Assembly (NCBI GenBank): GCA_018822435.1
Contig: JAHJKD010000003.1
Location: 1,208-65,207, forward strand
DNA from: Patescibacteria group bacterium
Lineage (GTDB): Bacteria > Patescibacteriota > Patescibacteriia > UBA9570 > JAHJKD01
Reading direction: 5' to 3'
Length of the DNA stretch: 64,000 nucleotides
In this document: one piece after another, positions 6,719 to 21,462 of the stretch
Position numbering within the stretch: position 1 is the stretch's first letter
How the letters are laid out: each line of letters opens with the position of its first letter
The notes under the pieces: model-generated
Seen by the model: the letters and a program-made list of their open reading frames with translations, nothing else
The model's database searches: none
What the model was told of the DNA's origin: nothing
Translations under genes and position numbers: made by a program

Positions 6719-7357
6719 TTATTTCTTTTTATTTTTTGAAAGATCTTGAGCCGTTTCTTCCAATGCTGATTTAATTATTGATTGTAACTCTTTAAGATCA
6801 CCCTGGTCAGCGTTTTGTAAAGCTTGAATATATTTTTTCCTTCCGGATTTAGTTTCCACTTTTAATTCCATTGGCGGTAAATTCAGATTCAAGAGAATAA
6901 TATTAATTAACAACCGTCCCATACGGCCATTGTAATCCTGAAAAGGATGAATCCATAAAAATCTATGATGCGCCCAGGTAAGCAGTTCAATTAATTCATC
7001 AAGAAATTTTCCATCATCTATTTTGGGAAGATTTTCCATCCTGACTTTAATATCTTCACACAGATCAATCATTAATTGGGGCACTAAAAAAAATTTTGGC
7101 GGAGTGTGATCAGAAATGTTTACCTCAATTTTGCGGAATTTACCGCCAAATTCAGGAAATATCCAACTAAAACCGACTTGATGTACTTTTTTAAGAAAAG
7201 AGGGAGTAATGGGTATTTTGCCTGATTTATATTTTTCTAAAATAAAATCCCAGGCTTTTTTAATGCCTTCAATTTCAAGGGGTATTAATTTAGAGCGGGG
7301 AATAACGCCAAAAGCAGTTTGCTTGTAGCTCGTTTCGTCTTTTTTCTTCCCGGTCAT
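6719..7357 (-). CDS. fic: Fic/Doc family protein (class I Fic toxin, AMPylation-type)
   Basis: Fic active-site motif HPFQDYNGRMGR (HxFx[DE]xNGRxxR, with Tyr in place of the first Gly). About 210 aa. A small upstream ORF carries an inhibitory motif. Confidence 0.75.
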   Translation of the reverse strand: MTGKKKDETSYKQTAFGVIPRSKLIPLEIEGIKKAWDFILEKYKSGKIPITPSFLKKVHQVGFSWIFPEFGGKFRKIEVNISDHTPPKFFLVPQLMIDLCEDIKVRMENLPKIDDGKFLDELIELLTWAHHRFLWIHPFQDYNGRMGRLLINIILLNLNLPPMELKVETKSGRKKYIQALQNADQGDLKELQSIIKSALEETAQDLSKNKKK

Positions 7358-7359
7358 AA

Positions 7360-7575
7360 TTATTTGGATTTGCTAATGACTTTCTGGACCATCTTTCTCG
7401 TGGTAGTGGGGTTTTCTGTTTTAGTGGTTCGGTAAATCATTTTTTCTTCAAATGCACGAAAATTATCTTGCCGTTCCTGGGAGGAAGATTTCCTATATTT
7501 TTTAAGTAATTTAATGATATTTTGCTTGCTCATATATTTAAAGTATAGCAAAAATACTGAAAAAGTCAATTTCAA
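7360..7575 (-). CDS. FicA/VbhA-like antitoxin candidate (true start probably the internal Met at 7533)
   Basis: Small ORF immediately upstream of fic on the same strand. Contains T-T-K-T-E-N, which fits the Fic inhibitory helix motif (S/T)xxxE(G/N) that class I antitoxins supply in trans. Confidence 0.45.
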   Translation of the reverse strand: MKLTFSVFLLYFKYMSKQNIIKLLKKYRKSSSQERQDNFRAFEEKMIYRTTKTENPTTTRKMVQKVISKSK

Positions 7576-7596
7576 AAATTAAAATAAAAAGAAATA

Positions 7597-7658
7597 AAAT
7601 ATGGGTGAAGTGAGGAGGAGGTACGACGACGAACGGAACCGCATACACGCTGTTAAAC
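7597..7658. repeat. attC-like half-site E (conserved core, right arm and end box)
   Basis: AATATGGGTGAAG...GAACCGCATACACGC-T-GTTAAAC. Its terminal box GTTAAAC is the exact reverse complement of box GTTTAAC at 8241..8247, across the def cassette. Confidence 0.5.
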
Positions 7659-7673
7659 GAAGTCAAGAAAAAT

Positions 7674-8219
7674 CTATGTTATATAATTTATTATTTTATG
7701 AATTACATTGAGCTTCTTTTGATCATACAATTCATCTATTGAAATTAAGTTCTTACAATCCTGAATTCTATCAATATATAAAATAGCATCAAGGTGATCA
7801 ATCTCATGTTGAACTAATCCTGCGAGTTTCCCTGAAAAATTGTACATACATTTTTTGCCTTGATTATTATACGCTTTGATAGTGATTTTTTTAAATCTTT
7901 TAACAAAGCTGCGCAAATAGAAAAAACTAAGGCATCCTTCACGGTTATTGATTAATGCTTTAGACTTTTGAATGATTTGCGGATTGATAAAAATATTAAA
8001 CTTTTCTTGATGATATATAATTATTATACGAACAGGATACCCTAATTGTGGCGCACAGAGCCCATTCCCATGGGAAGATGATATTCTTTTTATTGCCTTC
8101 ATTAATCTGATAATTTTACGAGATATCATCTGGACATCTTTTGATTGAATAGACTTAAGAGGTATCCTTTTAGATTTTTTCCGTAGGATAGGATTACCTA
8201 ATTGAAGAATTTTTTTCAT
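7674..8219 (-). CDS. def: Peptide deformylase, second divergent copy carried as a cassette
   Basis: All three PDF motifs are present: GNGLCAPQLG (motif 1, GxGxAAPQ with A changed to C), EGCLS (motif 2), QHEIDHLD (motif 3, HExxH). A canonical def-fmt pair sits at 59.5-60.9 kb. Confidence 0.8.
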   Translation of the reverse strand: MKKILQLGNPILRKKSKRIPLKSIQSKDVQMISRKIIRLMKAIKRISSSHGNGLCAPQLGYPVRIIIIYHQEKFNIFINPQIIQKSKALINNREGCLSFFYLRSFVKRFKKITIKAYNNQGKKCMYNFSGKLAGLVQHEIDHLDAILYIDRIQDCKNLISIDELYDQKKLNVIHKIINYIT

Positions 8220-8240
8220 AGAAAGATTTTTCTCGATTTT

Positions 8241-8334
8241 GTTTAACGTTCCTGGCTATGCGATGTTGCGACCGAAGGGAGCAATATGGGTGAGCTCTCT
8301 CGAAAGAGAGCGAACCGCATAGCCAGTGTTATGT
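8241..8334. repeat. attC-like structured repeat D
   Basis: GTTTAAC-GTTC-CTGGCTATGCG-ATGTT ... AATATGGGTGAG-CTCTCTCGAAAGAGAG-CGAACC-GCATAGCCAG-T-GTTATGT. The 11-bp arms CTGGCTATGCG and CGCATAGCCAG are perfect complements. End boxes fit RYYYAAC and GTTRRRY. Confidence 0.6.
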
Positions 8335-8382
8335 GTTGTAATTAAATTCAGCGAGCGAAGCGAGCTATATTATTGGGGTAAT

Positions 8383-9201
8383 TTATTCTTCGAAAATTTT
8401 TTCAAAGAATTTAACACGAGATTGTTTTGGATTGGGTAATAACATAATTTCTCTTAGATTTTGTATTTTACCATCTCTGATGAGTTCGGATAATATATCT
8501 AATACGGTAGAATTCTGGCCAAATATAACTCCGCCCGGCTTACATACTCTAACCATTTCTTCCATGAGGGCATAGTTATAATCTGATTCCGGTGGAGTAC
8601 CCTGCTTGGGACGAATGATAGTGTCGTCCATTCCATTGATCACCAAATTAGCTGAATCAGACGGTGCCGTGGCAAGAGTTAATAGCACATCGTCATTGAT
8701 GTAGTAACCATTATCTAAATTCGGCATTCTGATGGATTCTGGATTTGCTGGCGGGAGTGTGTGTTTGGCCTTAGCATTTTTTGAATCAATACCGATATAT
8801 TGACTTGCTCCAAATTCTTTGACTATGTTGCCAATAGAAAAATTCGCATCTTGTAAGACTCTTTCACCACAACCTAAGTCAATTAAGATTTGTCCATTTA
8901 GCTTTTGCTGTAGATATTCTTTAATTTTTTGTCGGACTTCTGGCGACGATTCCCCATAGGGACGACTCTCTTCGTCACCCAATCCTGCCCAGTAGTCAGC
9001 GAACTCGGTTTGATAACCTCCAAATTCTGTGTGCTCAATTATCTTGGTATATATAATGAGTCTGAGCTTTTCATCAAAATTTTCATCTTTATTCCAGTCC
9101 TCAGCTTTGCTAAGAGGCGGAATTAGATTTTGGATACGGAAAAAATTTCCGATATCAAATTGACTTTCTTGTTCTCTTCTTGGTCCTCTTTCAATGCTCA
9201 T
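8383..9201 (-). CDS. Class I SAM-dependent methyltransferase (orphan, substrate unknown)
   Basis: Motif I ILIDLGCGE (hh[DE]hGxGxG) and post-I CKPGGVIFG. No adjacent restriction partner. Confidence 0.6.
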   Translation of the reverse strand: MSIERGPRREQESQFDIGNFFRIQNLIPPLSKAEDWNKDENFDEKLRLIIYTKIIEHTEFGGYQTEFADYWAGLGDEESRPYGESSPEVRQKIKEYLQQKLNGQILIDLGCGERVLQDANFSIGNIVKEFGASQYIGIDSKNAKAKHTLPPANPESIRMPNLDNGYYINDDVLLTLATAPSDSANLVINGMDDTIIRPKQGTPPESDYNYALMEEMVRVCKPGGVIFGQNSTVLDILSELIRDGKIQNLREIMLLPNPKQSRVKFFEKIFEE

Positions 9202-9269
9202 ATTTCAAATAATAAATTGCCCCAATAATATACTTTTCTGCGACAGCAGAAAAGGAATTTAATTATTAC

Positions 9270-9396
9270 ACATAACGTTCCTGCGTATGCGATGTTTGCC
9301 AGTGGTATAATTGCACGAAGTGCTTACCACTGGCAAATATGGGTGGAGGCTTGCGGAGGTACGGAGCAAGCCGTAACCGCATACGCAGTGTTAGCT
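9270..9396. repeat. attC-like structured repeat A
   Basis: ACATAAC-GTTC-CTGCGTATGCG-ATGTT-[hairpin GCCAGTGGTA..TACCACTGGC]-AATATGGGTGGAGG-[hairpin GCTTGC..GCAAGC]-CGTAAC-CGCATACGCAG-T-GTTAGCT. Arms are perfectly complementary. The left box is the reverse complement of D's right box. The right box is the reverse complement of B's left box. Confidence 0.65.
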
Positions 9397-9460
9397 GATG
9401 TATTCCTTTTCTTTTCCGACGATAGTCGGTTGTTTTAAAAATTTTCAAATTTCTTTTTCC

Positions 9461-9592
9461 GTTTTGGGTGGTGGGCAGAGGGGAATTAAAGGGGTGAATG
9501 CCCGCCACCCAAAACACCTATTTCTGGTTTGAGGGAGGGGCAAGAGGGGAACAAAAGGGGTGAATTGCCCCGACCGAAAACTCTCTATTCTA
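9461..9592. repeat. Two tandem ~60-bp G-rich hairpin repeat units
   Basis: Unit 1 is GGGTGGTGGGC-AGAGGGGAATTAAAGGGGTGAAT-GCCCGCCACCC-AAAACACCTATTTCT. Unit 2 is GAGGGAGGGGC-AAGAGGGGAACAAAAGGGGTGAATT-GCCCC... The conserved core AGAGGGGAAnnAAAGGGGTGAAT is enclosed by a stem in each unit. Confidence 0.5.
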
Positions 9593-10334
9593 CTTGTCCA
9601 ATCTCTTTTCTGTATAAACAGTAGTCACAATCTTTGTCTGCCTTTGGTATTTTGTCATTTTCCAAGCACTTCTTGATATCTTTTAATGTTTTCTCTACCC
9701 AATCGTCACTTCCGATGTATTCAATAAGGTGAATATCAAATTCTAGTTTTGCATCAAAGGCTTTTTCATCTGGTCGTCCTGTGCAGTATACAAAATAACC
9801 TGTATTTGACATTTTGAGACCGTTTTGGCGTAAGAGCCACTGATATACTTCCATTTGCCTCTTATAGCCGTCCTGCCAGTCTTTATCCAGCTCTGTGACA
9901 GCTTCTGATTTTGCAGTAGCCTTGTAGTCTACAACAATGTATTCCTTTGTTTTTGGATCAAGCCACAAATCATCAATTGCTCCGCTGACGATAAAACCTG
10001 TTGGCTTGTGTGTGCACTCAACGCCTTTAAAGTTTTCTCTCCAAATATCTAGCGATTCGTGGGCTATAGGAATAGCATTAATGCCGTATTGTTTTTGTAT
10101 GGCGTGTTGTTCGCCGTTTGCTCGGTGTGCGTCAAATTCTGTTTTTAGGAGGTTGTCTACCGCGCTATTGAGTGAAAATGGATATCCGGGCGGTCGTTTC
10201 AATCCAAGTTTGTTATCCAAATAAAAACATTTTGGACATTGCTGGAATAAATCTATTTTTGAGCGTGAAAGACGCCAGCGTTTTCCGCCGTAGTTCCAGT
10301 CTGCTTTTCGTGGGATTGAGTAGTAGTCGGACAT
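9585..10334 (-). CDS. PD-(D/E)XK nuclease family protein with four Cys (Cas4/RecB-nuclease-like fold)
   Basis: Motif GAIDDLWLD...EYIVVDYKAT (D ... [D/E]xK). Cys pairs CPKC near the N-terminus and CDYC near the C-terminus suggest a metal or Fe-S site. Confidence 0.5.
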   Translation of the reverse strand: MSDYYSIPRKADWNYGGKRWRLSRSKIDLFQQCPKCFYLDNKLGLKRPPGYPFSLNSAVDNLLKTEFDAHRANGEQHAIQKQYGINAIPIAHESLDIWRENFKGVECTHKPTGFIVSGAIDDLWLDPKTKEYIVVDYKATAKSEAVTELDKDWQDGYKRQMEVYQWLLRQNGLKMSNTGYFVYCTGRPDEKAFDAKLEFDIHLIEYIGSDDWVEKTLKDIKKCLENDKIPKADKDCDYCLYRKEIGQVE

Positions 10335-10364
10335 GAAATTTAATTATTAATTAATATTTATTCA

Positions 10365-11576
10365 TCAAATCAGTTTCTTGGCCTTGCGATACATTTTTTT
10401 ATATGAATTTTCATTCACTTTCCTCAAAAACAATTTAAGGTCATTTTTTGCAATGATTTTATCTCCAAAGTAATACGATAATATCCCACTTCCATAAAGC
10501 AAGGCTGGTTCTTTATTTTTTTGGTATTCATTATTCAAAAATTCTACTACCTCAAGTGGATTAAATCCCAGTCTTTCAACTGGAATTGAAACTAACTTCT
10601 CATAACATTTAAAAGCACTTTTATAATTTTTCTCTAATATCTTAAAAAAGGCTAAATCAACAATTGTAAGCGTAGAGCTGGGGTATTTTTGTTGAAGTTC
10701 AGTTACGACTTTTTGAGCTTCTGCAATTTTTCCTTGTTTATACAAAAATGTAGCTAAATTTGTTAGTGCAAAATGATTATTCACATCGAGTTTCAAAATT
10801 TTATTACAAAATTCAATGCCTTTATTAAAATCTTTTTTATTTAAACCAAATTCAACAACTAAAATTGTATAATCATCAATAAGGTGGATAGCTGTGCTTT
10901 GTATTAAATCATCATTCCTTTTAGCTAGACTGTTATACAAACGTTCTAATAGAGCGATACTCTTACCAATTTTTCCATAAATCTTTAGTGAAAGCGCTAT
11001 TGTATATATTGATAAATCGAAGATATTGTTTGAAACGATTTGAATATCCTCAAATGAGTTATGTTCGATAATGTTCCAGTAATTTTTTCGTGCCATTCTC
11101 GACCTTAAATCTGCCAAAATCATTTTTCCTATTCTCTTTTCCTTATCATCTGGATGACCAAACGTAAAACTTAAATTTAATTTATTTATGTTGTTTCCAT
11201 CTTTTTTTAGGTTATCAACTGTGAAATCTCCCCATATAATCAAATCAATGTCTTTTTTATTTCTAAATTTTTCTGCTTCTTCCTGATTTTTAAATTTTTT
11301 AATATCTGAAAAATCTTGAACAACTACATATTTATCTAAATCTTGTTCTTTTAGGACTTGATTTATGTTTTTCTTTATTTGTTTGAAATAACTTCCAGAG
11401 TTCAAACCTTCATCAAATTCTATAGAAAGAGCGATGTTAAAATTAGCTGGAAACCATTGGAGTTTTCTTGCTCTGAGCCAATTATATAATTGCTTACGAT
11501 AAGTCCAACAGGCAGTCCCCAAGCCCCCTATTATTAGTAATATCAGCCCACTTATTATAGATTCAGTAATTTCCAT
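10365..11576 (-). CDS. Membrane-anchored protein with a C-terminal TPR-like repeat domain (unknown function)
   Basis: N-terminal TM helix (IISGLILLIIGGLGTA). Central domain without known motifs. C-terminal helical repeats of ~34 aa (ALTNLATFLYKQGKIAEAQKVV, AFFKILEKNYKSAFKCYEKLV). Confidence 0.45.
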   Translation of the reverse strand: MEITESIISGLILLIIGGLGTACWTYRKQLYNWLRARKLQWFPANFNIALSIEFDEGLNSGSYFKQIKKNINQVLKEQDLDKYVVVQDFSDIKKFKNQEEAEKFRNKKDIDLIIWGDFTVDNLKKDGNNINKLNLSFTFGHPDDKEKRIGKMILADLRSRMARKNYWNIIEHNSFEDIQIVSNNIFDLSIYTIALSLKIYGKIGKSIALLERLYNSLAKRNDDLIQSTAIHLIDDYTILVVEFGLNKKDFNKGIEFCNKILKLDVNNHFALTNLATFLYKQGKIAEAQKVVTELQQKYPSSTLTIVDLAFFKILEKNYKSAFKCYEKLVSIPVERLGFNPLEVVEFLNNEYQKNKEPALLYGSGILSYYFGDKIIAKNDLKLFLRKVNENSYKKMYRKAKKLI

Positions 11577-11631
11577 AATTTATTTTCATTACATTTTTCG
11601 AATATATTGAATTGTTAAAACCAAAAATATA

Positions 11632-12879
11632 TCATTTTACCAATTCACCACGAAAAGCTTTCCGGAACAGTGATTGTTGAATTTTATCAGTACGACTTTT
11701 AGCTTCTTTATATATATTTCTGGCTTCATTGACTTTACTTTTTATCATAGTTAGACGGTCAACAATCTTTTCTTGCTCCTCAATCGGCGGTAATGCTATT
11801 TGATATGTTTTAATATAATCAGTAGGAACACGAGCTTGACCCGCCGTCCCCGTCATATGTTGTTGCGCAATATGCCTAAAATAATCACTTCTTAAAATTG
11901 AATAAATGAATTTTGCATTTAGTCTGTCTGAGGGTCTAATGACATGAAATTCAGTAGTCCCAAACCCAATTCCATTAACCAAGTTATTAGCAATCGCTGA
12001 TTTACCATTTTCCATACAAGGTGTGATTTTTGCAAACAAGACATCGCCATTCTTGAAATAAGTGTAACCTTTTCGTACTTTTCCAATTTTTCTTATTTCA
12101 GGTGTTTCAATTTTCCCTGTATGCTCGTTTACTGCAGCCATTGGCACAAAACTAACATCTGTATCATCAGAAATATCTTTGACTTCGCTTTTTTTGGGAT
12201 TTATTTCAGCAATATCTTGTAATTCGACCATTTCCCAGCCTTCAGGTAGTACACTTTCATCATCTGGAATAAGCTTATGGAGTGCTGAAGACATTACGTT
12301 GGCTAAACGTATTTCAGCTTCAAAAAGTAATGACGTTGATTTTGTTAAAATACTTTTTGACTCGTTAAGTTTCATTAAAATCTCTTTTTGATTTGGAATT
12401 GGCGGAAGTGGAATTCGAAGATCTTTAATTATCGTTTGGCTTATATTTGATTGCGCCCCACCAAAACCCTTATCAATTAGGTTATCTTTTTCATTTATAA
12501 GATAAATTTTTAAAAAATCCTTTAAGATTTTACTTTCATCTGGAAAGAATGCACAAACGGCTTGGTTTGTTGTAGCTTCTATGCCAAGTTCAGCTGTTTG
12601 ACCAATGTTTGCTCCGTACATAGCCATTAAAAAAGTTCCTTTGGGTAGAATCTTTACGTTACTTGATTTTAAAGCATCTTTTGTGATTTTTTCTTCTGTT
12701 TCAAAAATTATATTTTCTTTTAATTCACCTGATTTTACCCAAGAAATTTTACCATTTTTATAAAATTCTTTATTGTTTCTACTTGGAGTTCCACCACTGG
12801 TTGTCTTACAAACAGTTTTTAGTTCTACCATTTTCCAGCCAGCAGGAAGTTCTATTTCATTATTTTTCATAATATACAT
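11632..12879 (-). CDS. hsdS: Type I restriction-modification specificity subunit HsdS
   Basis: Two target-recognition halves, each ending in the conserved motif LPPIxxQxxI (LPPIPNQKEIL and LPPIEEQEKIV), plus coiled-coil spacers. Confidence 0.8.
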   Translation of the reverse strand: MYIMKNNEIELPAGWKMVELKTVCKTTSGGTPSRNNKEFYKNGKISWVKSGELKENIIFETEEKITKDALKSSNVKILPKGTFLMAMYGANIGQTAELGIEATTNQAVCAFFPDESKILKDFLKIYLINEKDNLIDKGFGGAQSNISQTIIKDLRIPLPPIPNQKEILMKLNESKSILTKSTSLLFEAEIRLANVMSSALHKLIPDDESVLPEGWEMVELQDIAEINPKKSEVKDISDDTDVSFVPMAAVNEHTGKIETPEIRKIGKVRKGYTYFKNGDVLFAKITPCMENGKSAIANNLVNGIGFGTTEFHVIRPSDRLNAKFIYSILRSDYFRHIAQQHMTGTAGQARVPTDYIKTYQIALPPIEEQEKIVDRLTMIKSKVNEARNIYKEAKSRTDKIQQSLFRKAFRGELVK

Positions 12880-12885
12880 AGTTAA

Positions 12886-14244
12886 TTATCCCAATTCCTT
12901 TTGTAAATCTTCTAATTTATCTATCGCTTCTTTTAAAAAGTTTACACTTTCTTCAATTAAAACATTTGGCTCAGGAAGATTTGAGGGGTCATCGAAACTT
13001 TCATCTTTAAGCCATTTTAAATCTAAATTAAAATTTCTTTTTTTCAAATCTTCAAATAGGAATTTCTTCCATCGTTCTGTTTCCTGGTCTCTATTTTGAT
13101 ATTTCTCAAGAAAATCATTAAAGTATTCAGATTTTAGCGGTTTCCTTTTGGAAATTTTTTCTACATTTGTACGCAAGTCGTAAAACCACAAATTTTCTGT
13201 TTTCTCTCCTGTCTTTTCAAAAAAGATAACATTGGTTTTAACCCCAGGCGTATATGGTGTGAATGTTCCGTTTGGTAATCTAATTATGGTATGTAGATTA
13301 AAATTTTCTAAAAGCATTTTTCGTATTTTTGTCCCTGCTCCTCCTTCAAATAGAACGTTGTCTGGCATTACCATCGCACACCGACCACCATTTTTTAAAA
13401 TACTCATACAATGTTGTAGAAAGTTTAGTTGACGACTTTTGGTTACAACAAAAAAATCATCCCTACTATAAGAAACGCTGTTCGTTTTTTTGAAGGGCGG
13501 ATTTGTAAGAATTACATCATACCCATCGCCATACTTTTCTTTCAAAGAATCACCATAGGTAATTTGACCTTCTATTTCATGTAGATAAAGATTCATTATA
13601 CAAAGTCTTCTCGTTTCCCAAACAAATTCACCTCCTGAAATGGCTTCTTTTTGCAAAAAATCATATTCCTCTCTTTTTAAGCTCTTTTTTTCTTTTTCAA
13701 GCTCTTTAAAAATATACTCAAATGCTTCAATTAAGAATCCCCCCGTACCACAGGCAGGGTCATGGATTGTTTCATTGTGTTTAGGGTTTATACATTTAAC
13801 GATTGTTCGAATCAGTTCACGAGGGGTAAAATACTGACCAGCGCCTTTCTGTTCTGCTGCATATTTTGCGAGCAACCCTTCGTAAGCTGCTCCTTTAACA
13901 TCTATATCAATAGAAGACCACTCTTCATCGTCCAAAGCTCCAATTACTTTGTTTAGGCTAACAGGATTTCTAAATTTATTGTTTGATTGAGCAAAAATAT
14001 CTCCAAGCACTCCGGCTTCTTTTCCAAGATTCTTCAAAACTACTTCATAATGCTCAATAAGAGCCATGCCACTATGATTCATTAAAGTTTGCCAACTGTA
14101 TTCACTTGGTATACGAATACCTTTTTCATCAGCCATTTTGAGAAACAGCAAATATGTTAATTGTTCTATATAGTCACCATAATGCATACCTTCATCGTGA
14201 AGATTTCCTGCTAATGACCAAAGTTTTTGTACGATATCTGACAT
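12886..14244 (-). CDS. hsdM: Type I R-M N6-adenine DNA methyltransferase HsdM
   Basis: Motif IV NPPF (ILTNPPFKK). SAM-binding region DPACGTGGFL. N-terminal HsdM helical domain. Confidence 0.85.
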   Translation of the reverse strand: MSDIVQKLWSLAGNLHDEGMHYGDYIEQLTYLLFLKMADEKGIRIPSEYSWQTLMNHSGMALIEHYEVVLKNLGKEAGVLGDIFAQSNNKFRNPVSLNKVIGALDDEEWSSIDIDVKGAAYEGLLAKYAAEQKGAGQYFTPRELIRTIVKCINPKHNETIHDPACGTGGFLIEAFEYIFKELEKEKKSLKREEYDFLQKEAISGGEFVWETRRLCIMNLYLHEIEGQITYGDSLKEKYGDGYDVILTNPPFKKTNSVSYSRDDFFVVTKSRQLNFLQHCMSILKNGGRCAMVMPDNVLFEGGAGTKIRKMLLENFNLHTIIRLPNGTFTPYTPGVKTNVIFFEKTGEKTENLWFYDLRTNVEKISKRKPLKSEYFNDFLEKYQNRDQETERWKKFLFEDLKKRNFNLDLKWLKDESFDDPSNLPEPNVLIEESVNFLKEAIDKLEDLQKELG

Positions 14245-14257
14245 AGTATTTTAGTTA

Positions 14258-16939
14258 TTACATTGGTTGTAAAATATGTTCATTTATACGCTCTAGGGTT
14301 TCATTCAATTTACCTTCAAAATCCCTATTTGCTTTTGAAAAGCCACCCTTTCTACTAAAAGGCAATGAACGAAAATCGCTAGACTCTACAATGATATTTG
14401 TTTCAAGGTGGATTTTTATATCATCAAGCCATTGTTGCTGTGGCTCAGTCTCGCCCTCAAGTAACATTATCTTAAATGCTTTTTCTATACGTTGTCGTGG
14501 TGTATATAATTTTGTATTCCACATGGCGTGTGAAACAAATGCATATAAGTCAGCTGGGGTTTTAGTATGAGTTGCAATTTCATTTGCGCGTCTTAAATTA
14601 TCTTCTGTGAACCGTTCAGGTGTTTTTGCTAATTCATTTTTAAGCTCCTTGAAATGTTTCATTGAAAATTGTCTTGGTGAATTTAAAAGTATTTTAAGTG
14701 CCTCAATTGTCTTAGCATTTTGCTTAATATATTGCTTAAATGTTTCTAAGTAGTCTTTTGGTTTTAATTCTCTTCCGTCTGTAGTTCGAAAAATATATTC
14801 GGAGGTTGCAATTTCTGCCTTTTTTTCTTTAGAAATTATGAAACCTTGCCTGTAACGAGGGTAATTTTGTAAAAATTCAAGAAAATTAGGGTCTGACATT
14901 TGATTTAGAGCTTCTTCTTCTTGCTGAGCAAGCCTATCTTGAATACTTAATGAGAATTCTTGCAAGTTACCATCTGGTACTGCAAAGCGATTTTCAAGTT
15001 CTTTCCTCCCTTCTTCTGTTATATTCTTATCTACTCTTTGCAACTTCCTAGAAAGAGATTTCACGTTATCTTCAATATCTTTTCCATCACGAATTTCTTT
15101 AATGATTTCACCATAAGTCTTTCCAGCTTTCGTAATTGGTTGCATTATATCTCCGCCTTGCTCCTTCATGAAATCTATTACGCCAATAGCATCAAATACT
15201 GTGAAATGAGTTTTGTTAATATCTTTACAAAGCCGTGTGCCTCTACCAATCATTTGTTCGTAAAGAATTCGTGAACGAATAGGTCTTGCAATAAGCAAAT
15301 TTTCAATTGCTGGCACATCAACACCAGTAGAAAGCATATCAACGGTGACAACTATCCGTGGTTTTTTTAGATTTCTAAATTTACGAATTAGCTCATTTGG
15401 CTTATCGACGGTATAAGTTATTTTTTGAACAACATCATCACCTTCACCTAATTCTTTTCTAAATAGCTTTACCAATTGATTTGCATGTCGCTCATTAACA
15501 CTAAAAACTAAAGTTTTCTCATCTTTTCCAATATATTTACAGACTTCTTTAACAATTTTTCGGTTTCTATCTTCAACAGTCACTTTTCTCTCTAATCCGC
15601 TTGTATCAATATGCAAATCATCATCAAGAAGCTCATCTTTATGTTTTTTGGTTTTCCATTCCTCTATTGTAACTCCTTCTCCTTTTGAAAAAGATACTTC
15701 TTCTTTCATATCTATATCTGTTCGTATTCGTACTGCATCGAAATCTACTAAATATCCATCATCTACTGCCTTTAAATAGCCGTAAGAATACAGATCCTTT
15801 TCATCATGAACATCAAAATATGCTGCTGTGTGAGCTGCAGGCGTAGCAGTCAGTCCAAATTGATGTACATCAAAGTAATCCAAGACATATTTCCATTTAT
15901 TATAAATCGATCGATGGCACTCATCAGATATAATTAAATCAAAAGAATCAATTGGAAAATTCTTGTTATATTCAATTGGACTATCATCCCCGTCAGCCCA
16001 TTCATCTTCTGTTTTAACATCTACACCACTATCTCTGCCTTTAAGCATAGAATACAGTCTTTGTATGGTAGATACATAAACAAATGTATTTGATTTCTTT
16101 CTCTTTTTTAATTGTGATGGCTGTAATACCTCAGCATTATAATCAATTTTTTCACCATCTTCAGGCGTTGGTATCTTGTCACAATAGACAGAATATAAAG
16201 TATCAAATTTATTACCTTTTTCAGGTTCAAATGTTGAAAGAGCCGTTACTGTTTGATCTGCTAAACTTCTTCTATCAACCAAGAATAAAATTCTTTTAAA
16301 ATATCCAGACTTCATTAAATGATACATTAAGGCTGAAGCTGCAAATGTTTTTCCCGTACCAGTTGCCATTGCAATAAGCCCCATTCGTTTATTGTTCAGC
16401 AATCTGTTAACAACATATTCTGCGGCTTCTTTTTGATAAAATCTTAAAGCACGGTCGCCGTAAACAGTTTTAATCTCTTCGTTTTGAAGATACTTTATTG
16501 CGTTATTTTTATCTTCGGAAAGTCTTTCTGTTAAACTTTCTGGTGTATGAAAACCTTCAACTGCTCGACTAAAACTAGGTGATTCTCTTAAATTTTGAAA
16601 CCGTATATCTGTACCATTAGAGCTGTATACAAAAGGCACTTTGTAGCTGCCATACTTAGATTCAAAACCTTCTAAATCTTCTGCGTATCGTAAAGACTGG
16701 GTTAATACGCCATCAATTTGAGTTCCTTCCTTTTTTGCTTCAACTACACCTACAGGTTTACCATCAATTGTAAGTAAGTAATCAGCATCACCTGAGCTTG
16801 TAGGATATTCATAAATAGCCTCACAATCACTCCCTTTGATATCCGTTTTTCGCGAGACAACAGACCAGCCTGCTTTTTCAAGCAGTTTATCAATTTTTTC
16901 TGAACGTGTTTTTGATTCTTTAGGCATATTAAATTTCAT
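14258..16939 (-). CDS. hsdR: Type I restriction enzyme HsdR (helicase/nuclease subunit)
   Basis: Walker A MATGTGKTF and DEAH-box DECH (SDECHRS). N-terminal PD-(D/E)XK-type nuclease region. 893 aa. Confidence 0.85.
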   Translation of the reverse strand: MKFNMPKESKTRSEKIDKLLEKAGWSVVSRKTDIKGSDCEAIYEYPTSSGDADYLLTIDGKPVGVVEAKKEGTQIDGVLTQSLRYAEDLEGFESKYGSYKVPFVYSSNGTDIRFQNLRESPSFSRAVEGFHTPESLTERLSEDKNNAIKYLQNEEIKTVYGDRALRFYQKEAAEYVVNRLLNNKRMGLIAMATGTGKTFAASALMYHLMKSGYFKRILFLVDRRSLADQTVTALSTFEPEKGNKFDTLYSVYCDKIPTPEDGEKIDYNAEVLQPSQLKKRKKSNTFVYVSTIQRLYSMLKGRDSGVDVKTEDEWADGDDSPIEYNKNFPIDSFDLIISDECHRSIYNKWKYVLDYFDVHQFGLTATPAAHTAAYFDVHDEKDLYSYGYLKAVDDGYLVDFDAVRIRTDIDMKEEVSFSKGEGVTIEEWKTKKHKDELLDDDLHIDTSGLERKVTVEDRNRKIVKEVCKYIGKDEKTLVFSVNERHANQLVKLFRKELGEGDDVVQKITYTVDKPNELIRKFRNLKKPRIVVTVDMLSTGVDVPAIENLLIARPIRSRILYEQMIGRGTRLCKDINKTHFTVFDAIGVIDFMKEQGGDIMQPITKAGKTYGEIIKEIRDGKDIEDNVKSLSRKLQRVDKNITEEGRKELENRFAVPDGNLQEFSLSIQDRLAQQEEEALNQMSDPNFLEFLQNYPRYRQGFIISKEKKAEIATSEYIFRTTDGRELKPKDYLETFKQYIKQNAKTIEALKILLNSPRQFSMKHFKELKNELAKTPERFTEDNLRRANEIATHTKTPADLYAFVSHAMWNTKLYTPRQRIEKAFKIMLLEGETEPQQQWLDDIKIHLETNIIVESSDFRSLPFSRKGGFSKANRDFEGKLNETLERINEHILQPM

Positions 16940-16957
16940 TACATTGTTCTGATTGTT

Positions 16958-17173
16958 CTAACCCTGATTTTCAGGTGAACTTTTTTTCAAGAATGTTATT
17001 ACGTCTTTCTTGTGATAGCGTCTTGGCTGCGTATCACTTGGACGAAAGGCTTTAAGTAGTCCTTTATCGTCCCAACGTCTTAATGTCATAAGAGAAACTT
17101 GTAGTATATCTGCAACTTCCCGAAGGGATAGTATTTCCGGCATATCCTTTAATTGGTCTACTAGGTTTTTCAT
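16958..17173 (-). CDS. Small HTH DNA-binding protein (MerR/excisionase-type helix-turn-helix)
   Basis: 71 aa. LSLREVADILQVSLMTLRRWDDKGLL is a typical excisionase/MerR-family HTH. Located between the GmrSD-like gene and hsdR. Confidence 0.5.
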   Translation of the reverse strand: MKNLVDQLKDMPEILSLREVADILQVSLMTLRRWDDKGLLKAFRPSDTQPRRYHKKDVITFLKKSSPENQG

Positions 17174-17183
17174 AACAATAAAA

Positions 17184-19250
17184 TTAAGAAGAATGCTTAT
17201 TAAGTGATTGCTGTATTAAGAAAATGGCATAATCAATCTCCTCAGGCTCAGATAAGCTTACTTCTACATCTCCATTTCCCCAGCGTCCTAAATCCGTAAC
17301 ATCTTTTGCCATTCCTTTTGGGTCATCAAGTTCCTCAAATTTCATATTTAGAGAAAGTCTTAATCTGGTTTTTTGAGGGACAACATCTACAAAGTTTGTT
17401 GAAGTTTTGAAAGCTATGTAGAGCTTCATACATTCTTCTCTAATCTCTGGATTTAAAAGCATGATTCGCTCTTTTAATAGCTCGTAGAGAGTGAACATGT
17501 CGCCTTGTAGGTATTCATAATCTTCAATGTTGTAATCAGCTTCTTTTTCTGGTTGTAAGTCTTTTTTGTACTTCTCCAATATCTCATCAGATAAAACTGG
17601 AGCTTTCCAGATTTGCAGGGCTTCTTTGCTTAGAGTTTCGGCTCGTTGTTTAATCGTTTCTTCATTCCAAGTATCAAGGTCTATTAAATCTTTATTTAAA
17701 CGCACAGAGCTTTCTTTAAATCCTTTCTGCATATCTCTTTTTTCTGTGAACGATTTATTACTCATATCAGAGTTGTACCCCGTAAGAGTAAGATTTCCGA
17801 TAGTGTGCAAATACTCACTTTGGATTCTCTGGAAGTCCTCTCCAAGTGCTTCCTTCCATTGAGGGGTTAAGGTTTGAGGCATGATATGCTCAACGCTCAA
17901 ATCATCAAGATTTACTCGCTCTTTATTGTTGTGGTGTTCAATTTTCTCGAAGAGATAACCGCTATTTCTGAAATTGTAAACATCTTTCTTGGCTAGCTCC
18001 TCCTTAAATTCACTATCCTTAGGAAGTCGGTGATAGCTCTCTCGTAGTATGAAATTAGCCATGAGGCTTTCAATGTAATTCTCTGGCTCGATTTCTTTGT
18101 AGAGGTTCGCAAAGGTCTTATTAAGGGAATTGGTAGGAATACCACAAATAGCACGTCTAAAGACGTAGCATTCAACCAGTTTGAGAACTTCAATGAAATC
18201 TTCCTTTGTGATTATGTTGTTTTCGTAATCATCATAAACACTCATCAGGAATGGGTAAGCTACCTCAACCTTTAGAGTTCTGATGTTGTTAATTATCTCG
18301 TTTATTTGATTGTCTTCTTCTTTGTTAAATTCAAGTTTGGCGTAGTACTTTGAAAACTTGTGGACGTCTGCCACTACCTCTTCAATTTCTCTTCCGAAAA
18401 TATACTGCTTGTATGTTGTGTAAACTGAATCTAGGGTTGGGATTGAGCCTGTTTTGATAGTAAGGAAGCCACGCATGAAGTAGTCAAACTTTTCTTCATT
18501 TTGACCTTCGATAAAAAGGCTCTCCATTGGTAGCCAATACTTGGTGTAAATTTCTTTCTGATGGTCTGGCTCAAGCCCCATGAGAACATAATTCCTAATA
18601 AGGTCAGATTGAGACAAATCCAGTCCGGTAGAATTAAGACTTTCAAAAATAAGCTGAGGGTTGTCCTCTCTATCTAATGCAATATCAACAATGATAAGTT
18701 TTCGTATTCCTTTGAATAAATCATCAAGGTTAATGTTGCCTTTTTCTATTTGAGTAACAAAAAATAGGTAATTTTGGTAAATACGTTCGATTTCTTCATC
18801 TTTTGATATTTCTTCACCATCAACCAATTTTCTAAATACTTCTTTGTCATGTCGTGTAAGGCTTAGTTTAATTCGTTTATCATCTTTACTGTACTCATTC
18901 ACAAGGAAAGAGTTCATGATTTGACGTTTTGTAACCTCGTATTTCTCCTCCGATTTCTTCAAGGCATTCACCATTGCCAAGAAAAGCAATGACAGGGTTG
19001 TCAGTCTCTGCTGTCCATCAATTACAAGAGCCTGATTTGTACCTGCGATGTTATACATGCCAGCGGCTACATAAACGACCGAACCTATAAAGTGAGCAGG
19101 AACTGTATCATCAGTCGAAACTCGCAAAATATCATTCCAAAGTTGCTTACATTGGATTAAATTCCAGCTATAGGTACGCTGATAAATGGGAATAATGAAC
19201 TGCTGTTCTTTATTGATGAACGATATAAAATTGGTTTCTAATGCCTTCAT
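17184..19250 (-). CDS. GmrSD-like type IV (modification-dependent) restriction endonuclease, DUF262 plus DUF1524/HNH
   Basis: N-terminal DUF262 motifs YQRTYSW and IDGQQRLTTL (ParB/Srx-like NTPase). C-terminal His-Me finger LSVEHIMPQ (DUF1524). 688 aa. Confidence 0.75.
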   Translation of the reverse strand: MKALETNFISFINKEQQFIIPIYQRTYSWNLIQCKQLWNDILRVSTDDTVPAHFIGSVVYVAAGMYNIAGTNQALVIDGQQRLTTLSLLFLAMVNALKKSEEKYEVTKRQIMNSFLVNEYSKDDKRIKLSLTRHDKEVFRKLVDGEEISKDEEIERIYQNYLFFVTQIEKGNINLDDLFKGIRKLIIVDIALDREDNPQLIFESLNSTGLDLSQSDLIRNYVLMGLEPDHQKEIYTKYWLPMESLFIEGQNEEKFDYFMRGFLTIKTGSIPTLDSVYTTYKQYIFGREIEEVVADVHKFSKYYAKLEFNKEEDNQINEIINNIRTLKVEVAYPFLMSVYDDYENNIITKEDFIEVLKLVECYVFRRAICGIPTNSLNKTFANLYKEIEPENYIESLMANFILRESYHRLPKDSEFKEELAKKDVYNFRNSGYLFEKIEHHNNKERVNLDDLSVEHIMPQTLTPQWKEALGEDFQRIQSEYLHTIGNLTLTGYNSDMSNKSFTEKRDMQKGFKESSVRLNKDLIDLDTWNEETIKQRAETLSKEALQIWKAPVLSDEILEKYKKDLQPEKEADYNIEDYEYLQGDMFTLYELLKERIMLLNPEIREECMKLYIAFKTSTNFVDVVPQKTRLRLSLNMKFEELDDPKGMAKDVTDLGRWGNGDVEVSLSEPEEIDYAIFLIQQSLNKHSS

Positions 19251-19369
19251 AATTGAAATTTAATTAATTTTCTCAGGTTATACAAAGTATTACAAAGTTA
19301 GTATAACAATTCTAGTGTTTTTCACAAGAGAATGAAGGGAAGAGAAGAGCTGTATATTATAAAGAGTTG

Positions 19370-19500
19370 TTCCGCCGATAGGCGGAACTCCATATATTCC
19401 CCTCATTAAAAAAGCGTTTCCGTAGCGTAGCGGAGGAAACACCATATTTCCCCTTATAAATAAATCGTTTTCGGAGCAAAGCGGAGAAAACACCTTATAT
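19370..19500. repeat. Three tandem ~45-bp hairpin repeat units
   Basis: Units are GTTCCGCC-GATA-GGCGGAAC-TCCATATATTCCCCTCATT, GTTTCC-GTAGCGTAGC-GGAGGAAAC-ACCATATTTCCCCTTAT and GTTTTC-GGAGCAAAGCGGAG-AAAAC-ACCTTATATCCACTC. Hairpin stems differ between units but the tail nCCATATnTCCCCT is conserved. Confidence 0.5.
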
Positions 19501-19582
19501 CCACTCTAAAAATAAAGAAAAAGAAATTTGAAAATTTTTTAAAACAATTGGGCGATAGCCCAGAAAAGAAAAGGAATATTTC

Positions 19583-19697
19583 AGCTAACGTTTCGGCATA
19601 TACGATGTTGCACGGGTGTATAATAGCCGACAGGCTACACCCGTGCAATATGGGCGGAGCGACCATCGGGAGCGTAGCCGTATATGCCGTGTTATAT
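19583..19697. repeat. attC-like structured repeat B
   Basis: AGCTAAC-GTTT-CGGCATATACG-ATGTT-[hairpin GCACGGGTGTA..TACACCCGTGC]-AATATGGGCGGAGC-...-CGTATATGCCG-T-GTTATAT. Arms are perfect complements and covary relative to A and D. The left box is the reverse complement of A's right box. The right box is the reverse complement of C's left box. Confidence 0.65.
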
Positions 19698-19721
19698 GAT
19701 GTAATTTATCAAAATTTTTTA

Positions 19722-20870
19722 CTATTCTATTTTTAATATTTTGCAATCCACGAGATATGGCGACTTGAAATCTGTCATTTCGCCTGCTTTTTTGCCTGGA
19801 ACAGGAAATAATCTTGCTGATAATGGCTTATCTAACTTAATTGCTAAAGTCGCCATATCGAGAAGTGTCGCTTCAATCTTTTCTGCTGGCGTGTCGCCTG
19901 GAATTGGAACTGTGTCTAAACCAACACCGCAAACTGCTGAATATAAAAGCAGGTTAGTAATGCCGTAGGTAGCTTCATTTGCTCTCGTTGCAAGTCCAAG
20001 GTCTTCGCATACTGGGAGCATAAGACCAGAATAGCCACATATCTTAACTGACAAACCTTTGAGTACACGAGTGACCAAAGCAGAAATTGTAAGTGTTCCT
20101 TGACTTCCAAATTTGCCAAAGCCGAGTTTTTCAAAAGCAAAAGCAATACTTTCATGCTCCTCAAGTCCTGGATTTAGTGAAGCATCAATACCATTATAGC
20201 CAATGCCAAAGTCTTTTGAAATCTGTTGAGCTAAATCGGCGACTTTCTTAGTTTCTTCTTCAAATATTGCTTTTAGGTTTTGCTCTGCTTCTATGAGATT
20301 GCTTGATTTTGAAAATGCCTTCACGGCTAAGTCTCCGCACTCCAAGCCAATACCGAAAGCGGTTTCTCCCTCGTGAAAACCGGTAGGAAAGAACGGAATA
20401 CCTGGCTTACAATTTGCGGAGGCGCAGAATCTAAAATTGCCGTAACCGTTTTCGGTTTCCTCTGCAATTCGTTTGATAACTTGAGCTGCTATTTTGGCAT
20501 TTTCAAAATCTATTCCACTTTCCTTGTCGCCGATTTTGGCGGAGCATGAAATTTGAGAGGTAACTTTATTAAATTCAGGAATGAGTTTAATTTTATCTGG
20601 CGTTTTTGCGTAGCCCATATTGAAAAAACTTACGTCGAGGCTTTGGCAAATTTGTTCTATTTTTTGAATCGCACTTACAATTTCTGCGTCTGAAAGACTA
20701 CCAAGATATTCTTCCCATGAATTAGTGGCTATTCTGGTCGTCTGCACTTCATAACCTGCTTTTTCAAACACTTCCTTAGCTTTGCGATTGAATTCAGCAG
20801 TTTGTCTTATTTGATCTTCAATATCAGGTGATTGAAGCGACACGCCAGTTGTTATTGTTCTTATTTTCAT
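19722..20870 (-). CDS. DUF711/UPF0210-family protein
   Basis: N-terminus MKIRTITTGVSL resembles the conserved DIRTITMGISL start of UPF0210 proteins. 382 aa, shorter than typical family members. Assignment is from memory of the family signature. Confidence 0.45.
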   Translation of the reverse strand: MKIRTITTGVSLQSPDIEDQIRQTAEFNRKAKEVFEKAGYEVQTTRIATNSWEEYLGSLSDAEIVSAIQKIEQICQSLDVSFFNMGYAKTPDKIKLIPEFNKVTSQISCSAKIGDKESGIDFENAKIAAQVIKRIAEETENGYGNFRFCASANCKPGIPFFPTGFHEGETAFGIGLECGDLAVKAFSKSSNLIEAEQNLKAIFEEETKKVADLAQQISKDFGIGYNGIDASLNPGLEEHESIAFAFEKLGFGKFGSQGTLTISALVTRVLKGLSVKICGYSGLMLPVCEDLGLATRANEATYGITNLLLYSAVCGVGLDTVPIPGDTPAEKIEATLLDMATLAIKLDKPLSARLFPVPGKKAGEMTDFKSPYLVDCKILKIE

Positions 20871-20912
20871 GGTGCGAAATATTAAAAATTAAAAATTTTG
20901 ATAAATTATTTC

Positions 20913-21001
20913 ATATAACGTTTCGGCATAGCCGAAGTTTGACGGGTGTAAAATACGCCGAAGGTGTACACCCGTCAAATTTGGGTGAGCGAGCGTTAAA
21001 A
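20913..21001. repeat. attC-like structured repeat C (variant)
   Basis: ATATAAC-GTTTCGGCATAGCCGAAGTT-[hairpin TGACGGGTGTA..TACACCCGTCA]-AATTTGGGTGAGCGAGC-GTTAAAA. The left arm self-pairs here (TTCGGC-ATA-GCCGAA). Confidence 0.5.
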
Positions 21002-21021
21002 ATAAAATTGTTTTTATTCGT

Positions 21022-21462
21022 TTAGAATAATAACTTGTATGTTACTCCTTCTTTCCATTGTGGATTTTCCCATTCTTTGAAATCAAAATTTTCACATAGA
21101 TTTCGCATAGGAGAATTTTTAAAAGCGGTTTCTGTAACAACTCCTGTAGCTTTTTTGTTTTTTGCGTGTTCAATACATCTACCCATCAGTTTTTTTCCTA
21201 TACCAAGCTTTTGAAAATATGGATCAACGAGTATTTCACGGATGAAAAAGAAATTGTCTTCCCACCAACCTCTGTCTATAGAACAAAAAGCCACAAATTC
21301 AGCTCCTTTCTTTGCGATAAGATAAAGGCTATCTTTTAGCTGAAAGTGTTTTTTTAGTGAATCTATTGTGGCTTTGTCGTAGGTATAATTGAAAGATTTT
21401 TTATTACGTAAAAAATCAATTTCTTTTTCATTTTTCATCTCTGTAATTTTGATTTCATCCAT
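21022..21462 (-). CDS. GNAT-family N-acetyltransferase
   Basis: Acetyl-CoA-binding motif A QKLGIGKKLMGRCIEHAK (Q/RxxGxG/A). About 145 aa, the typical size for a single GNAT domain. Confidence 0.75.
   Translation of the reverse strand: MDEIKITEMKNEKEIDFLRNKKSFNYTYDKATIDSLKKHFQLKDSLYLIAKKGAEFVAFCSIDRGWWEDNFFFIREILVDPYFQKLGIGKKLMGRCIEHAKNKKATGVVTETAFKNSPMRNLCENFDFKEWENPQWKEGVTYKLLF

Follow-up and report, generated by a model that had tools for sequence, protein, structure and literature searches.

A covarying repeat array beside an Xer-type recombinase gene suggests an integron-like gene-capture platform in a Patescibacteria chromosome

Structure-specific recombination and modular gene capture are classically illustrated by integrons. 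In these systems, the gene of a tyrosine recombinase adjoins a primary site (attI) and diverges from a one-directional array of mostly single-gene cassettes, each of which ends in an imperfect palindrome (attC) that is kept in structure, not in sequence. The limits of the cassettes fall within AAC/GTT, the first bases of each cassette being complementary to the outer box of the site that it carries, and it is the strand opposite to the open reading frames (ORFs) that folds; the cargo is mostly of unknown function or made of toxin-antitoxin and defence genes, and one type of site can recur across unrelated cargo, as in the Vibrio cholerae repeats (VCR). Each of these traits has its counterpart in a 64,000-nt stretch (the window) of contig JAHJKD010000003.1 from a Patescibacteria group bacterium, and its relatives, in which five copies of a structured repeat (the elements) alternate with genes beside the gene of a Xer-type tyrosine recombinase. 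Judging from their sequences, these elements are probably cassette-associated recombination sites, functional analogues of attC in an integron-like gene-capture platform on the chromosome of a member of the Patescibacteria, also known as the Candidate Phyla Radiation (CPR). The system is integron-like in every feature that can be tested in sequence but fails the definition of the integrase, and it most likely works like an integron.

The system also differs from integrons in several respects. The recombinase lacks the insertion of the integron integrase IntI and scores as a XerA-type enzyme. The elements contain a three-way junction (GATGTT, AATATGGGYGNAG and CGNARCC), a fixed asymmetry of 4 unpaired nts opposite 1 nt, and outer (R) stems of 12 to >22 bp instead of 7 bp; typical attC sites have neither a conserved three-way junction nor R stems of this length. 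In addition, many cassettes carry promoter-like and hairpin modules of their own in their flanks, and some elements hold genes inside their variable arms.

Other Xer-dependent systems share part of this organisation. In the CTX phage, an integrative mobile element exploiting Xer (IMEX), the folded single-stranded attP(+) mimics dif and is integrated by the host Xer recombinases. The Xer-family recombinase, the dif-like core, the presumed folded single-strand partner and the stacking of integrations at one locus are similar here, with the difference that many small single-gene cassettes with their own structured sites take the place of phage genomes and that the recombinase gene lies beside the site. 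The pdif modules of Acinetobacter also consist of genes (toxin-antitoxin, resistance) bounded by Xer-type sites. However, a pdif site is simply 28 bp of double-stranded DNA that lacks covarying stems and a three-way junction, and the orientation of successive sites alternates, whereas the elements described here covary, form a three-way junction and have a single orientation. Finally, the archaeal XerA/dif and the streptococcal XerS/difSL systems rely on a single recombinase and a palindromic core beside its gene (in streptococci, difSL adjoins xerS), and the closest family model and structure are of this kind (see below), but their role is the resolution of chromosome dimers, and no cassette arrays are known from them. 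In the full-text literature outside subscription-only titles, no report of an integron, an attC site or a cassette array was found for Patescibacteria or CPR, and the papers containing both integron and CPR terms were merely IntegronFinder runs in resistome surveys.

Anatomy, covariation and distribution of the elements

On the + strand, every copy follows the same plan, which consists of TAAC, four unpaired nts (GTTC or GTTT), an 11-nt 5′ arm, ATGTT, hairpin 1, AATATGGGYGNAG, hairpin 2, CGNARC, an 11-nt 3′ arm, a single T and GTTA. The initial annotation of this DNA had reported perfect 11-bp stems (hereafter L stems) in three copies, all of which are present exactly as quoted, with 11 pairs out of 11. 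Element A (9273–9393, + strand, 121 nts) is intact and scores 120.8 bits with the covariance model described below; its L stem pairs CTGCGTATGCG (9281–9291) with CGCATACGCAG (9378–9388). Element B (19586–19694, + strand, 109 nts, 118.8 bits) is also intact and pairs CGGCATATACG (19594–19604) with CGTATATGCCG (19679–19689), as is the shorter element D (8244–8331, + strand, 88 nts, 90.8 bits), in which CTGGCTATGCG (8252–8262) pairs with CGCATAGCCAG (8316–8326).

Elements C and E, both on the + strand, bring the total in the window to five, within 6695–21510. Both are split by genes. Element C (20916–21510, made of 20916–20996 and 21484–21510) retains an L stem of 11/11 pairs between 20924–20934 and 21495–21505 over a span of 595 nts, and a hairpin 1 at 20940–20977 (20940–20950 with 20967–20977). 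In element E (6695–7655, made of 6695–6718 and 7598–7655), the last site at the distal end of the array, 6703–6713 pairs with 7640–7650 through 10 Watson-Crick pairs and one G.T pair, followed by T-GTTA, and the AATATGGG core is found at 7598. A partner for the 5′ flank of element E was searched for to the left of 6695, where none was found and where the array ends. A model search with filters off detected no further element in 1–24000, including the part left of 6695, and the other 42 kb of the window contain no copies.

An alignment of 17 copies gave a consensus structure in which the R and L stems are accompanied by a tight three-way junction. There, the two inner hairpins are closed at their base by pairing of ATGTT with AATAT and of GGY with RCC, and both pairings covary. 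The internal hairpins of elements A, B and C are as first described, and the sequence conservation that had been pointed out is equally real: the short core AATATGGGYGRAG has 3 matches in the window versus 0.29 expected, and the GATGTT junction, in the form TAACGTT..GATGTT, has 4 matches versus 0.02 expected. What needs amending is the notion of a simple unpaired core, which is conserved but partly base-paired. When folded as single-stranded DNA, the intact copies reach z-scores of -5.4 to -7.9 relative to shuffled sequences. A hammerhead or other small ribozyme was considered and dropped, the junction bases being paired and neither a CUGANGA/GAAA core nor an Rfam hit being present.

The covariation was examined in a larger set of copies. 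One genome per species was scanned with the recombinase, yielding 80 loci, and a covariance model built from the 17 aligned copies was searched in 1.22 Mb of sequence. Independently of the model, the 5′ motif was searched alone and its complement looked for afterwards, so that pairing played no part in the selection. Upstream of the recombinase, in CPR loci and the window, 17 of the 20 correctly oriented hits were followed by an 11/11 complement exactly 1 nt before GTTA, while seven chance hits reached 4–8 of 11 only, even if every GTTA site within 3 kb was tried and the best one kept. Over all loci, the distribution of complementarity was bimodal, with at least 10 of 11 pairs in 100 of 213 hits. 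In the 17 genome copies, 94.1% of the cells were paired versus 73.7% after shuffling, none of 500 shuffles being as high; pairing fell to 29–47% when the partners were slid against each other, and both sides had changed in 9 of the 10 L-stem pairs. A set of 91 distinct metagenome copies gave much the same result (92.5% paired versus 72.6% in shuffles, matched by 0 of 500), with changes on both sides in 27 of 34 pairs, including all 10 modelled L-stem pairs.

The compensatory covariation proposed from three copies is hence borne out in both sets, and the uncompensated mismatches that drift would produce are not seen at such a level, apart from rare decaying copies. One copy of this appearance, at positions 5892–6012 of locus L014, resembles element A (82% identity over 256 nts with its flank), and its L stem of 9/11 pairs and two mismatches in hairpin 1 are uncompensated.

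Two G.T pairs are conserved on the + strand (TAACG/TGTTA and ATGTT/AATAT), in 78 and 85 of the 91 metagenome copies, and the covariance model scores about 120 bits on the + strand versus at most 20 bits on the - strand. In the remaining columns, G.T pairs outnumber A.C pairs by 117 to 56. Relative to most ORFs, the + strand is the bottom one, as in integrons. Taken together, this is only moderate evidence for the strand that folds, since the model used to fit the alignment favours G.U pairs. It was also observed that the R arms of nearly all cassettes contain a T.T mismatch and a G.T pair (GTTAnnYGATGTA versus TATTTCRnnTAAC; in the window, 9390–9402 versus 19577–19589), which may constitute a second polarity signal.

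The same type of covariation, with G.U-type pairs, tandem G.A motifs and GNRA-like loops, could be expected of structured non-coding RNAs, acting as processing or insulator signals or as antisense RNAs transcribed from a TGnTATAAT motif in long hairpin 1. Such a -10-like motif, TA[TCA]AAT, is present on the folding strand in 25 of 34 long hairpin 1 variants, often after TGn, and in 0 of 56 short variants. The alternative of structured RNAs had been left standing initially, and it has become quite improbable. Rfam 15 gave no match, either at gathering score over the whole window or at E<=1 in the element regions, a search for tRNA and tmRNA found none, and the folding strand is antisense to most cargo genes. 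Moreover, RNAs would leave unexplained the complementarity of junctions across cassettes of 0.3–10 kb, the arms common to the elements and the core site, the divergence of strains exactly at TAAC and the confinement of the elements to one side of the recombinase gene, which are described below.

The covariance model found further copies, and found them beside related recombinases. All 51 hits in the loci were on the recombinase strand, and 48 of them lay upstream of the recombinase gene, in the window and 16 CPR loci with recombinases 51–67% identical; the roughly 10 kb downstream of the gene held no hits apart from a weak one. ORFs and elements alternate in these arrays, with the ORFs mostly on the opposite strand, giving co-oriented arrays of structured imperfect palindromes with AAC...GTT outer boxes, as in integrons. 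A pattern scan of metagenomes returned at least 120 stretches, and the model, run on the first 80 of them, identified 92 elements on 53 contigs; on each of the 21 contigs bearing several elements, all lay on one strand. Viral contigs were scanned with the same pattern as a control, and 79 of 80 loci had no model hit. The single positive, an IMG/VR contig (L252:1620-3751), has eight elements in 2.1 kb with no room for ORFs between them; cassettes without cargo thus form an array on this contig, which is classed as viral.

Outside the CPR, a single clear hit was obtained in a metagenome-assembled genome (MAG) labelled archaeal (L035:14179-14282, a typical element of 44 bits), and a weak, attC-like one in a Bacteroidetes MAG (L029:9095-9243), where a recombinase with 42% identity is encoded just downstream of it. 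The system or its relatives may therefore extend beyond the CPR, or these two MAGs may be mis-binned.

Short GC-rich palindromes between the genes of an AT-rich genome could also suggest dispersed repeats, similar to repetitive extragenic palindromes (REP) or miniature inverted-repeat transposable elements (MITE), that gathered in an island rich in intergenic sequence. This reading has a negligible likelihood, since such repeats would not be absent from the other 42 kb of the window and from the region downstream of the recombinase in about 16 loci, nor from 79 of 80 viral contigs with the pattern, and would not show a fixed orientation, one element per cassette and the junction rules described in the next section. 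Together with the covariation, this array context agrees with the original opinion that the repeats are not inert.

Core site, cassette boundaries and turnover

Next to the recombinase gene, a core site resembling attI and dif was found at 21768–21796 (+ strand), with the sequence ATTTCAGCTAA-CTGGTTA-TTATACGAAGT. It consists of two inverted 11-bp arms with the consensus TTAnnYGAWGT on either side of a 7-nt centre, which each arm meets with TAA; this is the arm-centre-arm layout of a Xer core site. The cassette junction is the TAAC at 21776–21779 within the core site, which lies 142 nts upstream of the recombinase gene, so that a divergent recombinase gene adjoins its presumed primary site as in integrons. 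The sequence tATtTCnn(T/C)AAC-TSGTT-TTATRCGAA is conserved upstream of the recombinase gene in about 20 CPR loci. A second copy of the arm, GTGTTATGCGGCTATT, is present as a direct repeat at 21825–21840 (+ strand), between the core site and the recombinase gene, and a TATATTATGCGAA-like repeat is located about 45 nts from the core in most CPR loci, which would be compatible with a putative accessory binding site. The GC skew of the window was also seen to rise, between about 20000 and 24000, from negative or near-zero values to about +0.2–0.27 at the recombinase; this shift is uninformative on an origin, a terminus or dif, because the gene strand switches at the same place.

The core site and the elements have in common tATtTCnnaTAAC, a spacer and then TATgCGAwgT. 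More precisely, the 5′ half of an element is colinear with the core site (tATttCnnaTAAC, spacer, TATgcGAtGT), the spacer being 2 nts longer in the elements.

The boundaries of the cassettes are of the integron type. The 3 nts beside AAC and GTT vary between elements, and the 3 nts that follow the GTT of an element are the reverse complement of the 3 nts that precede the next AAC for 15 of the 21 pairs of neighbours; the exceptions are mostly places where an element in between was absent from the list. The complementarity also holds for 8 of 12 junctions with the recombinase-proximal site; within one element, it occurs in 7 of 34, versus a frequency of 0.11 in random pairs. Likewise, the C or T of (C/T)AAC follows the G or A of the GTT(G/A) of the preceding element, CAAC variants occurring after GTTG. 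When the site of an excised cassette is reconstructed, an R stem of 22 bp is gained and the fold energy changes from -22.9 in the array to -37.7 kcal/mol, and in another case from -34.3 to -44.8 kcal/mol. The first bases of a cassette are thus complementary to its own outer box, and the boundary is consistent with a crossover in GTT/AAC. Because the first cassette abuts the core site without an element in between, in the window and also in related arrays, an element can be assigned to the gene that neighbours it on the side of the recombinase, as read in the direction of the ORFs.

Strain comparisons mark the same position. Two loci, L001 and L002, encode the same recombinase protein (P0002, 67% identical to that of the window) and have the same downstream genes, only 5 of 2932 nts differing from the start codon onward. 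Upstream of the start codon, 142 nts are identical up to TAAC, beyond which the cassettes are unrelated; the cargo upstream differs, and a single element is present in L002. In addition, three independent contigs (L005, L009 and L324) begin exactly at the T of TAAC, the last of which is a separate assembly with the window's own recombinase. Such starts would be expected if a population had different cassettes at this place, creating a branch point in the assembly. The complementarity across cassettes, together with the divergence and the contig starts at TAAC, therefore points to a crossover inside AAC/GTT and to circular cassette intermediates.

A core site with a classic 11-7-11 palindromic layout adjoining the gene, and a recombinase that passes the cutoff of the XerA family model and lacks the I2 region that IntI needs for folded substrates (see below), could belong to Xer/dif-dependent modules that recombine as ordinary double-stranded sites, in the manner of IMEX or of Acinetobacter pdif modules. 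The palindromes would then be inverted binding arms and no strand would fold. This explanation is unlikely, as it does not account for arms that are perfectly complementary within an element and divergent between elements, for compensation at all 10 L-stem pairs and covariation of both inner hairpins, or for the G.T positions conserved on one strand, the constant asymmetry of 4 nts versus 1 nt and the conserved three-way junction.

The recombinase and a proposed mechanism

The recombinase gene (21918–22739, + strand) is transcribed away from the array and encodes a Xer-type tyrosine recombinase of 273 amino acids with a Pfam Phage_integrase domain and a SAM-like N-terminal domain. The protein is identical to one annotated in a Patescibacteria MAG and has thousands of CPR relatives at about 60% identity. 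Conserved catalytic motifs of the RKHRHY type are readable in the alignment with XerA and are invariant in 36 homologues. No second recombinase was found in the window. A coiled-coil ORF of 117 amino acids downstream of the recombinase was considered as an accessory protein and dropped, as it is conserved only in close relatives.

Family assignment places the enzyme within the Xer family, the NCBIfam model NF040815 (recomb_XerA_Arch) giving 229 bits, just above its cutoff of 220. The model of integron integrases, TIGR02249, matches in two stretches with an E-value of 4.8e-64 and a score of 216.7, below its cutoff of 265. By sequence, the best PDB match is Pyrococcus abyssi XerA (4a8e, 173.7 bits), aligned in one stretch, whereas V. 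cholerae IntI4 (2a3v) aligns in two stretches, with 23 residues in the recombinase where IntI has 66, so that about 43 are missing. In an AlphaFold model (mean predicted local distance difference test (pLDDT) score of 81.6), residues 181–199 contain no helix. A Foldseek search of the PDB ranked 2a3v first (E = 2e-15) and 4a8e second (E = 3.9e-14). The missing part corresponds to the IntI-specific insertion (the I2 helix region, around patch III), which is treated as needed for attC recombination (PMC4792948; PMC7790495) and was described by Messier & Roy 2001, as cited in PMC9668308. By sequence comparison and in the predicted structure, the recombinase thus appears to stand between XerA and IntI, without the insertion that defines the latter.

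This bears on whether the locus could be a bona fide integron with a divergent integrase and divergent attC sites. A divergent tyrosine recombinase gene, an adjoining primary site, cassettes with folded sites and boundaries in AAC/GTT are all in place, and both the structural match to V. cholerae IntI and the E-value of TIGR02249 go in this direction. Relative to the consensus boxes of attC, AAC/GTT and an asymmetric unpaired spacer (GTTC versus T) are present. Nevertheless, such an identification is highly improbable. The defining insertion is missing (23 versus 66 residues, without a helix in the model), TIGR02249 remains under its cutoff while the XerA model scores higher, the R boxes fit RYYYAAC/GTTRRRY only at AAC/GTT and at one further position, the RYYY/RRRY part being a partial fit, and the three-way junction and the R stems of 12 to >22 bp depart from attC. 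Since the insertion is absent, the system is not an integron by definition, and its sites are to be regarded as attC analogues of a Xer-type system. The attC-like reading of the initial annotation hence stands in a refined form: the one-strand cassette array, the tyrosine recombinase, the attI-like core site and the integron-type boundaries speak for it, but the recombinase is not an integron integrase.

A mechanism can be proposed in which the platform would comprise the Xer-family tyrosine recombinase, a double-stranded primary site (TTAnnYGAWGT arms and a 7-nt centre) and the five cassettes, and in which the folded + strand of an element would imitate the primary site. The R stem (ATTTCRnnTAAC with GTTAnnYGATGT) would provide one binding arm. 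The other would be formed by the inner, conserved part of the L stem together with ATGT paired to ATAT across the junction (..TATGCGATGT). The spacer would then correspond to the 3-nt bulge (5′ GTTC opposite 3′ T) and the variable outer part of the L stem, with the bulge giving polarity and strand choice; as pairing would be all that is required of a spacer, the compensatory changes in the outer L stem could be understood. After a cut by the recombinase within AAC/GTT, a single strand would be exchanged with the primary site or another element, so that circular cassettes would be inserted or excised. The anatomy of the elements, their covariation and their link to the recombinase are observed in these loci, as are the complementarity of boundaries and the strain turnover at TAAC; that the DNA folds as a single strand, which parts act as binding arms and where exactly the cut falls are predictions.

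Several points weigh against the interpretation of the elements as attC analogues. The IntI-specific insertion in the I2 helix region is absent, as described above. The recombinase may primarily be a housekeeping enzyme of dimer resolution, because the family is very common in the CPR and, among close relatives, is in conserved synteny with core genes. About 10% of the elements hold whole genes inside hairpin 2 or hairpin 1. In one locus (L140), the recombinase is in the opposite orientation. The preference of G.T over A.C pairs, which is part of the argument for the folding strand, comes partly from an alignment made with an RNA-type model and has moderate weight. Lastly, the case is built from sequence. 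It is worth noting that the recombinase of L140 (252–1064) is more distant, with 41% identity, and lies near a five-element array at 2117–9429.

With regard to the broader picture, it can be put forward only tentatively that cassettes are recombined across the CPR as single strands, in a structure-specific manner, by a Xer-family recombinase lacking the I2 insertion, whether as a surviving ancestral form of the integron or as an independent invention. IntI is held to have gained the use of folded single strands via an extra domain on a Xer-like ancestor. If the proposal is true, this extra domain would not be required for such a life-style, or the CPR system would be a living model of the pre-integron state. 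Cassette gene capture would be extended to the CPR, whose tiny genomes would have at their disposal a swap-in shelf for defence, toxin-antitoxin and small enzyme genes, and such a shelf would represent a major route of adaptation in this group. It would also supply new compact, structure-defined recombination sites for engineering.

Cargo, nested genes and shared flanks

Five cassettes occupy 6695–21775, each ending in one element, with the genes between elements on the - strand. Cassette 1 (21511–21775, - strand), whose site is element C, contains an ORF (21522–21752) that corresponds to the C-terminal fragment of a PnuC-like nicotinamide mononucleotide (NMN) transporter, and it is flanked by GTTAGCTGAAGT (from 21507) and TTTCAGCTAAC (to 21779). 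Beyond the recombinase, at 23252–27580, lie a nadD-like gene and the genes of NadA, NadC and NadB, the fragment in cassette 1 being that of a PnuC-like NMN transporter. Cassette 2 carries a DUF711 protein gene (19722–20870, - strand).

Cassette 3 (9394–19585, - strand) extends over 10.2 kb and encodes GmrSD, a helix-turn-helix (HTH) protein and a type I restriction-modification (R-M) system (HsdR, HsdM and HsdS), in addition to a TPR protein and a PD-(D/E)XK nuclease, also on the - strand. Its two ends are mutually complementary over about 70 nts (inverted repeats I2 and I4) and bear a promoter-like module and hairpin modules. Cassette 4 contains an ORF of 272 amino acids without a family match (8383–9201, - strand), flanked by inverted repeats I9 and I1, and cassette 5 a peptide deformylase gene (7674–8219, - strand), flanked by inverted repeat I8. 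More generally, the gene segments are bracketed by inverted repeats of at least 22–27 nts (I8, I9, I4, I2 and I1), which take in the GTTA of the left element and the TAAC of the right element.

Across the loci, the cargo enzymes include GNAT, NUDIX and P-loop kinase proteins, M24 and trypsin-like peptidases, peptide deformylase and a radical SAM or photoproduct-lyase-like protein, and other cargo families are RibD_C, ASCH, an ABC transporter and DUF711. Selfish or defence functions are represented by a Fic module, restriction systems and toxin-antitoxin genes. In five related loci (L010, L013, L014, L016 and L057), 11 of 20 cassette ORFs are without a Pfam match; a match exists for most ORFs in the cassettes of the window itself. 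Such cargo is typical of integrons.

The genes nested in the sites concern eight clear cases in hairpin 2, and hairpin 1 in element E. In element C, a GNAT gene (21022–21462, - strand) lies in the loop of hairpin 2, surrounded by a 15-nt perfect inverted repeat. In element E, a Fic gene (6719–7357) and an ORF of 71 amino acids (7360–7575), both on the - strand, occupy the position of hairpin 1, and the insert is bracketed by a perfect inverted repeat of 17–19 nts (6717–6735 with 7581–7599). As a rule, the nested ORFs are bracketed by a perfect AT-rich inverted repeat of 14–27 nts, and 7 of 9 are antisense to the folding strand. An intron-like reading of these ORFs was rejected, given elements of 53–195 nts and the antisense orientation of 7 of the 9. 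To our knowledge, there is no precedent in integrons for genes nested in the hairpins of a site, and no integron model predicts them.

A further peculiarity is the reuse of flanks. Element A with 125 nts of its flank (9274–9518) is 99.6% identical to positions 1–245 of locus L132, and the opposite flank (19393–19662 versus L132:4608-4826) is 81–97% identical, but the cargo between these shared flanks is unrelated: about 10 kb of R-M genes in the window, ORFs of 1311 and 104 amino acids in L132, and an ABC transporter in L014. Together with the recurrence of flank modules in many loci, this looks like the swapping of cargo inside a conserved cassette frame, the flanks acting as a putative chassis.

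At the 3′ end of the 10-kb cassette, tandem 55-nt hairpin repeats were noticed at 9461–9515 and 9527–9581 (GTTTTGGGTGG...CCACCCAAAAC), at the point where the homology between the window and L132 stops, and the same 55-nt hairpin is found beside elements in L014, L084, L098, L118, L124 and L185. At the 5′ end of this cassette, 19447–19585 (in the sense of the minus strand) contains a promoter-like or leader module (..CGGAGCAAAGCGGAGAAAACACCTTATATCC..TAAAAATAAA..). This module is also present at cassette starts in about ten other loci, so that expression signals seem to be part of many cassettes.

Nested-gene elements and shared flanks could offer a way into the long-open question of the origin of cassettes. 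If the tentative proposal for the CPR as a whole is true, sites with a three-way junction and gene-bearing arms and reusable promoter/terminator chassis flanks would be properties that integrons lack, and may expose how cassettes are created.

Within hairpin 1, the TA[TCA]AAT motif is located at 9306–9311 in element A and at about 19619–19624 in element B, and a weak TTGCCA-18-AATTAT match is present inside hairpin 1 on the opposite strand. Promoter and terminator scans gave only weak consensus hits, located inside hairpin 1 on either strand, which were not relied on.

Finally, a stretch without an element at 5550–6640, just past the distal end of the array, appears GC-rich by eye, well above the 32–41% G+C of the window. 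It contains two small membrane-like ORFs (6045–6404 and 6404–6634) and looks foreign.

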